DNA from: a virus | Taxonomy: Monodnaviria > Loebvirae > Hofneiviricota > Faserviricetes > Tubulavirales > Inoviridae | Direction: 5' to 3' (one strand) | Virus record (IMG/VR): IMGVR_UViG_2541047969_000007 | Length of the DNA stretch: 9,240 nucleotides | Shown here: positions 7,858-8,280 of the stretch, piece after piece | How the letters are laid out: every line of letters starts with the position of its first letter | Position numbering within the stretch: the stretch's first letter is position 1 | Program-made: the position numbers and the translations under genes | The notes under the pieces: model-generated | What the model was told of the DNA's origin: nothing | Seen by the model: the letters and a program-made list of their open reading frames with translations, nothing else | Databases searched by the model: none

Positions 7858-8280
7858 ATGAGTAGAAATAACGAAACAAGCGGCGTTGAACTGGTTGTCG
7901 TGGGCGTATTTGCTTTCTGTCTGGCAGTTGTTGCCTGGCTAATGAAAACTTTCGATGTTGAATGGCAAACAGCGCTGGAAACTGCGCCTGGCCTGATAGT
8001 GTGGCTGCTTGTTGTCGGGGCGGGGATCTTTTTCGGGATCAAAATGGAAACAGGCCTTGTTCGCTGGGGTGCTCCACTGGCGATCGCCCTTCTGATTCCG
8101 GTATTCAAACCAATTCTTAAGGAAGCTGCCGGAGTTCGTGAAACGGGTGGGCTGGTTTTCGATGATATGGTTTCGTGGTACGGAACTGGCTGGGGAATGT
8201 CGTTGATGTTTTTCGGAATTCTTATCATCGGATACGGGATGCTTTATTGGTGGCACAGAAGAAATTCATATTACTGGTAA
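7858..8280 (+). CDS. Small integral membrane protein (about 4 predicted TM helices), unknown function
   Basis: 140 aa. Hydrophobic helices (VELVVVGVFAFCLAVVAWLM, GLIVWLLVVGAGIFFGI, APLAIALLIPVF, MSLMFFGILIIGYGMLYWW). SD AAGGA 8 nt upstream. The antisense ORFs in the track are low-complexity shadows. Confidence 0.6.
   Translation: MSRNNETSGVELVVVGVFAFCLAVVAWLMKTFDVEWQTALETAPGLIVWLLVVGAGIFFGIKMETGLVRWGAPLAIALLIPVFKPILKEAAGVRETGGLVFDDMVSWYGTGWGMSLMFFGILIIGYGMLYWWHRRNSYYW

Follow-up and report, generated by a model that had tools for sequence, protein, structure and literature searches.

MEM, a predicted four-helix membrane protein encoded at the head of a hypervariable cargo region in dif-integrated filamentous prophages of Enterobacterales

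The gene at positions 7858-8280 of the plus strand of the IMG/VR record IMGVR_UViG_2541047969_000007 (Inoviridae) encodes a small membrane protein with the working name MEM, and it is the commonest first gene of a hypervariable cargo region that lies between the repressor gene and the attP site of filamentous prophages. The window is the entire 9,240-nt stretch of this record, its phage is a dif-integrated filamentous prophage of the CUS-1/YpfPhi kind, and the numbers L001 to L058 denote the loci that were compared with it. The MEM gene is under purifying selection and is a real gene of the plus strand. Its product is tentatively regarded as a stand-alone accessory inner-membrane protein of the temperate dif-integrating filamentous phages of Enterobacterales. 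Its position, its dispensability and its retention in prophage relics point to a possible role, somewhat short of an even chance, as a stand-alone protective protein of the lysogen that acts by superinfection exclusion or by blocking phage entry.

MEM is found in 128 of 5,426 complete E. coli genomes, nearly always on the chromosome, and the pII gene of the same phage type is found in 115. In five or more divergent lineages of inoviruses, with different regulators and structural modules, it directly follows the regulator gene in the same orientation. The CUS-1 type is represented by UTI89, L001, numerous IMG/VR contigs and the window itself. In L002 and L011, which form a second E. coli type, the structural module is a different one and MEM follows a 60-aa regulator, and a relative of this type in Yersinia enterocolitica (L006) has a MEM that is 74% identical. 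The prophages of an E. coli/Salmonella type (L021-23) have a repressor and a MEM that are 37% and 41% identical to those of the window. L025, which has a 467-aa pII type, carries a MEM of 26-29% identity after a PHROG 3557 repressor, and L057 belongs to a further type, with a pIV at 47% identity and MEM after the regulator. The L011 contig carries a Candidatus Nanosynbacter label as a metagenome-assembled genome and contains a prophage of E. coli type, with MEM 97% and pII 86% identical to those of the window; this label is most likely due to a binning contaminant.

MEM is dispensable for the phage, because L002 has two tandem prophages with identical core proteins, one with MEM and a second copy without it, and because CUS-1 and the infectious YpfPhi, which are 99% identical across 7.1 kb, differ precisely in these attL-side open reading frames (ORFs) (PMC4266046). 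MEM is also kept where most of the phage has been lost. What remains in a Lonsdalea relic (L008) is a dif-like site, the phage left end (about 90 bp), the repressor gene's 3' tail, the hairpins and an undisrupted MEM; the last ~70 bp of the 159-aa gene described below and attP come directly after it, and no other phage gene is present. At the same chromosomal place, Lonsdalea L058 has two consecutive mini-relics, one of which is made of MEM and a 251-aa gene, and the ratio of nonsynonymous to synonymous substitution rates (dN/dS) of MEM between L058 and L008 is 0.18. In Mixta intestinalis L003, a perfect dif site lies about 380 bp from a MEM that is intact and 50% identical, with ~80 bp of the phage left end upstream of the gene.

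Mini-relics at dif are seen in Lonsdalea and Rosenbergiella (L058 5766-8113; L008 7390-8560; L013 15072-15396), with a layout of about 90 bp of left end, repressor 3' tail, hairpins, one cargo gene or two, and a site that resembles attP. The recurrence of this layout suggests that deletion derivatives can still integrate through Xer, or that decay is recurrent and patterned. Genes for Hcp, a component of the type VI secretion system (T6SS), adjoin dif-side elements in Mixta (L003 7223-7675) and Rosenbergiella (L013 11508-13014), and in the latter the interval between a full prophage and the MEM relic holds an Hcp gene, an amidase-like gene that is split and a gene for a signal-peptide protein.

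The first-pass annotation of the window described a polytopic membrane protein of 140 aa on the plus strand, with its own Shine-Dalgarno sequence, placed after the repressor and a terminator-like structure in a dif-integrating inovirus. This description is borne out by the ORF, by an AAGGA sequence, by four hydrophobic segments, by a double hairpin at 7770-7815 and by the order of genes around the regulator in the lineages described above. Homologous loci keep a purine-rich GGA at the same distance from the MEM start. In 11 homologous loci, the sense frame of MEM has a dN/dS of 0.03-0.15, and in the comparison of frames its value, 0.06-0.15, is the lowest, against 0.13-0.32 for the antisense frame that shares its wobble positions and at least 0.8 for the other two antisense frames, and only the plus frame is open in 11 of 11 homologues. 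One antisense frame is open over 128 codons in most homologues and is disrupted in Yersinia. A gene on the opposite strand, a possibility raised at first reading, is ruled out by the frame-specific dN/dS together with the stop codons in homologues, and the long antisense ORFs are by-products of codon composition.

The cargo region that begins with MEM has flanks that are shared among phages, namely the repressor end with its hairpins on one side and attP on the other, and a content that differs. Behind MEM genes that are 74-99% identical, at least 12 distinct sets of genes are found. These sets include the Zn-ribbon/159-aa pair of the window, a 369-aa gene in UTI89, genes of 89 and 240 aa, of 133 and 114 aa, of 321 aa, of 54, 105 and 257 aa, of 98 and 262 aa, and of 251 aa, a gap followed by a 98-aa gene, and a distant 159-aa-like gene with a 127-aa gene. 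In L042, the set is made of genes of 264 and 88 aa, the former with an Argonaute-associated helical restriction endonuclease (REase) domain, and in L052 it is a 368-aa TIR protein; the proteins with these two domains also both touch PDC-S35. In L054 and L055, attP follows directly and MEM is the only cargo gene. PADLOC models gave only weak, sub-threshold matches to seven other cargo proteins. The slot is thus a hot spot of cassette swapping with genes of defence type.

The two genes that follow MEM in the window encode an ECs_2282-family CxxC Zn-ribbon protein and a 159-aa protein with an N-terminal transmembrane (TM) helix. They overlap by one base (TAATG) and are therefore translationally coupled to each other, whereas MEM is separated from them by a gap of 28 nt that has no hairpin and is not coupled to the pair. 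MEM has a guanine-plus-cytosine (GC) content of 48.5%, the two genes after it have 37.0% and 35.2% (together 35.9%; Fisher p = 3e-5 over all positions) and the window as a whole has 42.1%. A portion of this excess is explained by the richness of the protein in Gly, Ala, Val and Trp, but the difference persists at third positions (48.9% versus 35.3%, p = 0.01). The pair is also found without MEM, as it is widespread on Klebsiella plasmids together with a 127-aa third gene (PHROG 22661) and is present in a Serratia island with AIPR, SMODS/S_4TM and HNH genes. MEM is found without the pair in UTI89, L003, L006, L008, L012, L013, L015 and most IMG/VR loci. Among the 5,426 complete E. coli genomes, 28 have the pair and 128 have MEM, so that just 28 of the 128 genomes with MEM have the pair as well. 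The higher GC content of MEM and its separate origin from the pair, both proposed in the first-pass annotation, agree with these data. The further suggestion that MEM is the membrane component of a three-gene system with 8309..9063 finds no support as an obligate arrangement, since MEM and the pair each occur without the other. An optional partnership may exist, as L021-23 keep the order of repressor, MEM, Zn-ribbon and 159-aa genes (identities of 37, 41, 54 and 64%), with a tight spacing of 9 nt between MEM and the Zn-ribbon gene.

The pair (window 8309-9063; L029-L033, ~8731-9900) is a neighbouring, separable cassette that is mobile in its own right and is a candidate two- or three-gene defence system, as judged from its gene content and distribution. 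Its copies on Klebsiella plasmids adjoin TacAT and ParDE modules and a NACHT gene, and a protein of ~465 aa with HTH_28/29/32 matches is usually encoded upstream of it. A TolA C-terminal domain (PF06519) is present in proteins whose genes come directly after the MEM prophage of L023 (8813-9889) and, on a Klebsiella plasmid, near the cassette (L032 3975-4409). A soluble or anchored TolA domain could serve as a decoy for the pIII of filamentous phages or for colicins.

A role of MEM as a RexB-like membrane effector is considered unlikely. In such a role MEM would be the constant component that damages or gates the membrane in abortive infection, triggered by soluble or membrane-anchored sensors from adjacent genes, here the Zn-ribbon and 159-aa proteins and in other loci other cassettes. 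The size, the four TM helices and the place on the same strand 3' of the repressor agree with lambda RexB (144 aa). The MEM, Zn-ribbon and 159-aa genes diverged together in L021-23, where they keep a 9-nt gap and identities of 41, 54 and 64%, and the gap in the window is free of hairpins. Such an effector also suits the defence-type matches in the downstream slot (TIR, Argonaute-associated REase and the PDC-S64 match of the Zn-ribbon protein) and the operon next to CBASS described below. However, the comparison of the MEM family profile with RexB in hhalign gave a probability of 0.05% and PADLOC gave no match, MEM stands intact and alone in relics and is the sole cargo in L054 and L055, and several alternative cassettes are set off from MEM by a terminator-like double hairpin. 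The pair, moreover, is a unit elsewhere without MEM, is coupled internally and not to MEM, and is present in far fewer E. coli genomes.

The MEM family is nearly confined to the cargo regions of inoviruses. A relative with 36% identity (P0051) is located outside inoviruses, as the last gene of an operon with genes of 108 and 161 aa upstream of a type II cyclic oligonucleotide-based antiphage signalling system (CBASS), and it is present on an enterobacterial chromosome (GCA_013728935.1) and on an IncHI2 mcr plasmid of Raoultella. Neither partner has a Pfam or PHROG match, and the 161-aa protein has a weak match to PD-Lambda-5_A (6e-4). These two genes were compared with the Zn-ribbon/159-aa pair of the window and no relatedness was found. 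Another relative is located among insertion sequence elements.

A helper function in phage or host physiology, in which MEM would tune the carrier state instead of blocking invaders, is likewise improbable. MEM might then ease the envelope stress caused by the secretin/Zot export machine, set the virion output or modulate the repressor switch from the membrane. MEM is nearly universal in the phage group (128 genomes, versus 115 with pII) and is tightly linked to the regulatory module. CUS-1 and YpfPhi give small fitness gains in animals through genes that are not known (PMC4266046), and MEM may have a part in the modest effects of CUS-1 in the host. On the other hand, MEM is intact in relics that have neither the export machine nor the repressor, sibling phages whose core is identical lack it, and its relative next to CBASS lies outside any phage.

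The MEM protein is predicted to have four TM helices, as the first reading had it, by both hydropathy and modelling. A 19-residue Kyte-Doolittle scan has four hydrophobic maxima, at residues ~10-29, 44-62, 68-84 and 110-132, and the AlphaFold2 (AF2) model, which was built from a 29-sequence alignment, has helices at 6-32, 36-63, 67-91 (kinked by proline) and 111-139, with a pLDDT of 85.3 and a pTM of 0.72. With 15 close sequences as input, AF2 gave a poor model (pLDDT 67). Pro85, just past helix 3 at the start of loop 3, is the sole invariant residue, present in 29 of 29 family sequences, and Pro73 (at least 90%), Tyr108 and Gly125 are nearly invariant. The family motifs are P-x-L-x-[YH]-x-A-G after helix 3, W-Y-G ahead of helix 4 and G-Y-G within helix 4. 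The best-conserved motifs are those in loop 3, and the conserved residues gather in this loop and in TM3/TM4. Loop 1 and loop 3 both have a net acidic charge, with loop 3 averaging +1.7/-3.1 charges over 29 members, and the C-terminal tail after helix 4 (HRRNSYYW) is basic. This weak positive-inside bias suggests an inner-membrane topology with both ends in the cytoplasm (N-in/C-in) and loop 3 probably in the periplasm.

Immunity proteins against pore-forming colicins are usually small polytopic proteins of the inner membrane, with three or four TM helices and 110-180 aa. MEM resembles them in size and topology, and it might be an orphan immunity protein against a membrane-targeting toxin, such as a pore-forming colicin or microcin or an ionophore effector of contact-dependent inhibition (CDI) or of a T6SS, delivered by competitors; the phage would then carry it as a gain in fitness for the host. 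The retention in relics and the strong purifying selection suit a gene that benefits the host, and the Hcp/T6SS genes near the dif-side relics of Mixta and Rosenbergiella point the same way. This role is nevertheless quite improbable, as Pfam and NCBIfam have no immunity family, of colicins, microcins or other toxins, that matches MEM, the loci examined contain no toxin gene beside it, and a wider spread among elements than the near limitation to inovirus cargo would be expected.

MEM matches PHROG 4174, of unknown function, at 3e-85, with residues 1-140 aligned to profile positions 1-140 of 140, and its RefSeq entry (WP_021579045) is annotated as a hypothetical protein. A k-mer-seeded search gave 49 clusters, all from Enterobacterales and all labelled hypothetical, in genera that include Escherichia, Salmonella, Klebsiella, Citrobacter, Phytobacter, Pantoea, Lonsdalea, Yersinia, Kosakonia, Pectobacterium and Mixta. 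When 1.84 billion cluster representatives were searched exhaustively with a profile, only 41 matched at E <= 1e-3, about 25 of them over the full length (120-140 aa, 20-40% identity). Pfam has no match to MEM at E <= 1, and none of Pfam, NCBIfam and PADLOC has a curated model that matches MEM or any of the 29 family members. The best PDB sequence profiles were 47-aa light-harvesting peptides at E 0.03, which is noise, and a Foldseek search with the model found no PDB or BFVD entry below E = 2. A literature search found no paper that names MEM; the 'Inovirus Gp2' genes of the ST127 paper are other genes. A phage holin was also considered and rejected, as the match to Phage_holin_3_6 is limited to 2 of 29 members at E = 0.33, a lysis gene is absent and the element is a non-lytic filamentous phage. 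PHROG 4174 is a small family without a characterised member, and MEM is classed with the small inner-membrane accessory proteins that prophages encode in their immunity region.

The double hairpin between the repressor and MEM folds with -28.7 kcal/mol (z = -4.0 versus shuffles) and was missed by a simple terminator scan because its second loop has 9 nt. In 8 loci, 8 of 13 hairpin pairs stay paired through double changes. The hairpin is likely a terminator or attenuator. The DNA that is common to different phages begins at position 7757 of the window, and the double hairpin travels with MEM and the cargo region irrespective of the repressor type. It has two sequence types, of which the second recurs 3' of MEM ahead of the next cassette in several loci, and a related double hairpin is found between cassettes in L020 (9428-9450), L047 and L049 (4426-4490) and L058 (6425-6450). 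It may be only a terminator, or it may be a cassette-junction mark, a packaging signal or a minus-strand origin; no Rfam family is near threshold for the hairpins or attP. One bold reading of this arrangement, which is very improbable, makes MEM the constant membrane gate of a plug-in defence platform, with exchangeable sensor or enzyme cassettes, such as the Zn-ribbon/159-aa pair and the TIR and REase genes, behind a reusable double-hairpin junction. MEM would then execute the abortive response of the cassettes or allow sensing at the inner membrane, in a modular Rex-like layout borne by single-stranded DNA phages and by their mini-relics at dif.

In the preferred reading, that of a protein that protects the lysogen by itself, MEM would be transcribed in the lysogen by read-through of the hairpin from the repressor promoter. 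The interval between the hairpins and the ATG has no sigma-70-like match to the promoter consensus, a weak negative that fits read-through from the repressor transcript. The protein would insert in the inner membrane in the N-in/C-in orientation, and the surface formed by loop 3 and TM3/TM4 would block an envelope step that is common to incoming filamentous phages. The likeliest step, as a guess, would be the Tol-dependent insertion of pIII and the entry of DNA, and the outcome would be protection from superinfection for a lysogen or for a cell that keeps only a prophage relic.

Several observations weigh against this role. MEM has no match in curated families of superinfection immunity or exclusion, such as the T4 Imm type, and no likeness in sequence, profile or fold to any characterised exclusion or immunity protein searched; the literature search found no expression or phenotype results on it. 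The topology call is based on a weak charge bias. As the pIII proteins that accompany MEM differ greatly, any exclusion would have to act at a step they share, and as MEM prophages stand in tandem or mixed arrays (L001, L002), exclusion is incomplete at best, or the arrays arise without reinfection. The 36%-identical relative beside CBASS fits a general role as a defence effector at least as well.

The positions 1-95 and 9146-9240 of the window are identical (95 nt), which indicates that the window is a single 9,145-bp unit of an element that is either circular or repeated. Its minus strand has the full gene set of a filamentous phage, with pII (Pfam Phage_CRI, 1e-73), pV, coat proteins, a Zot-type pI and a secretin, and its plus strand has the helix-turn-helix (HTH) repressor, MEM and two further genes. 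Strain FDAARGOS_1303 (L001) has the window DNA at 100% identity, repeated in tandem at least three times at the E. coli dif site, with an SDR gene on one side and the hipBA region on the other, and one of these copies has a frameshifted pVI-like gene. No match to the window was found in the INPHARED phage genomes at the DNA or protein level. The attP site is the right-hand limit of the variable cargo region, and the window sequence most similar to dif, with 8 mismatches, is at 9133-9160 of the minus strand. The features are collected in Table 1.

Table 1. Features of the window and of selected compared loci. Positions refer to the window unless a locus number is given.
Feature	Position	Strand	Basis or remark
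82-aa ORF	156-404	-	Interval from attP to secretin; PHROG 6642 (function unknown); no Pfam match
82-aa ORF	550-798	-	Interval from attP to secretin; no Pfam match
HTH repressor-type regulator, 148 aa	7312..7758	+	Pfam HTH_3 1.6e-9; Phage_CI_repr 4e-4; PHROG 3557 transcriptional regulator 4e-74
Double hairpin and T-rich tail (CTTTATT)	7770..7823 (7770-7785; 7787-7815)	+	Between repressor stop (7758) and MEM
Shine-Dalgarno AAGGA	7845..7849	+	8 nt upstream of the MEM ATG; read from sequence
MEM, 140 aa, ATG start, PHROG 4174	7858..8280	+	ORF call, profile match, dN/dS, AF2
TM helix 1, residues ~10-29	7885..7944	+	Hydropathy peak 2.6; AF2 helix 6-32
TM helix 2, residues ~44-62	7987..8043	+	Hydropathy peak 2.2; AF2 helix 36-63
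TM helix 3, residues ~68-84, proline-kinked	8059..8109	+	Hydropathy 1.6; AF2 67-77, 79-82, 84-91
Loop 3, residues 85-109	8110..8184	+	P-x-L-x-[YH]-x-A-G and W-Y-G motifs; net acidic
TM helix 4, residues ~110-132, conserved G-Y-G	8185..8253	+	Hydropathy 1.6; AF2 helix 111-139
Antisense ORF, 136 aa	7818-8228	-	Inside the MEM gene
Antisense ORF, 105 aa	7939-8256	-	Inside the MEM gene
Zn-ribbon/159-aa pair, neighbouring separable cassette	8309..9063	+	NF047912, PDC-S64, PHROG 6723
ECs_2282-family CxxC Zn-ribbon protein	8309-8584	+	NCBIfam NF047912 3.6e-18; PADLOC PDC-S64 4e-7
159-aa protein, N-terminal TM helix	8584-9063	+	TAATG overlap with the Zn-ribbon gene at 8582-8586
CTX-type single-stranded attP	9064..9163		Two inverted dif-like half-sites, GC-rich stem; forked hairpin -50.9 kcal/mol
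264-aa gene of the set 3' of MEM	L042 4491-5285		Argonaute-associated helical REase in the 264-aa protein (1.3e-34)
368-aa TIR protein gene 3' of MEM	L052 4446-5552		TIR match 1.4e-11
108-aa, 161-aa and MEM-relative operon	L017 7125-8417; L010 7117-8408		Next to CBASS (CD-NTase, ThiF, JAB, SAVED)

About 2% of complete E. coli genomes, UTI89 and K1 lineages among them, have a CUS-1-type prophage at dif, and such prophages are also present in Salmonella, Klebsiella, Citrobacter and Yersinia. Since 2002, no predictable function has been given for their accessory genes. Among these genes MEM is the most constant, and it outlasts the decay of the phage, which makes it the best single candidate for a benefit to the host. 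If the entry block is true, MEM would be the first superinfection-exclusion protein described for temperate inoviruses of enterobacteria, and it would give a handle on their entry route.

Among known systems, lambda RexB is an inner-membrane protein with four TM helices. RexB and MEM are close in length (144 and 140 aa), and both genes lie 3' of a prophage repressor on the same strand, in the order cI-rexA-rexB in lambda; expression in the lysogen is known for RexB and is presumed for MEM. They differ in that no homology is detectable (E 0.8 in the hhalign comparison with the 29-sequence profile; no Pfam match), MEM has no constant partner like RexA and persists alone, and its host element is a filamentous single-stranded DNA phage. 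MEM was therefore rejected as a RexB homologue, and the likeness is architectural only. The protein PfsE of the Pf inovirus is the closest functional precedent for the role proposed for MEM, both being inner-membrane proteins of temperate inoviruses. PfsE prevents superinfection of the lysogen from its place in the inner membrane (PMC8764522). It reportedly has about 30 aa and a single helix and targets PilC, a protein of the type IV pilus. MEM, with 140 aa and four helices, does not have the size or architecture of a PfsE-type protein, and a relation in sequence is not expected. The receptor of enterobacterial phages of the CUS-1/YpfPhi kind is not known (PMC4266046).

The CUS-1 prophage of UTI89 is integrated at dif beside hipBA, as is the phage of the window, and it has an identical repressor protein (WP_000527682) and a MEM gene of 96.7% identity, followed by the 369-aa gene instead of the Zn-ribbon/159-aa pair. 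The attL-side ORFs of CUS-1 and YpfPhi have no predictable function and are mutually unrelated (PMC4266046). Hypervariable cargo regions (pHVRs), rich in defence genes and kept in relics, are described in the CTX-I dif-inoviruses of Vibrio (PMC12715192). The region that begins with MEM resembles them as a short variable block by the Xer site, with cassettes swapped among near-identical phages and retention in relics. Its content varies between shared flanks near attP, and the defence genes, such as TIR and REase, are in the slot and not in MEM. No XafT homologue is seen here, as the two attP-side ORFs have no Pfam match; these two 82-aa ORFs fill the attP side where the Vibrio phages have xafT. 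The Vibrio block lies between zot and xafT, whereas the one described here extends from the repressor to attP, on the opposite side of the genome, and has a near-constant first gene, MEM. The cassette-swapping slot thus extends the Vibrio pattern to Enterobacterales.

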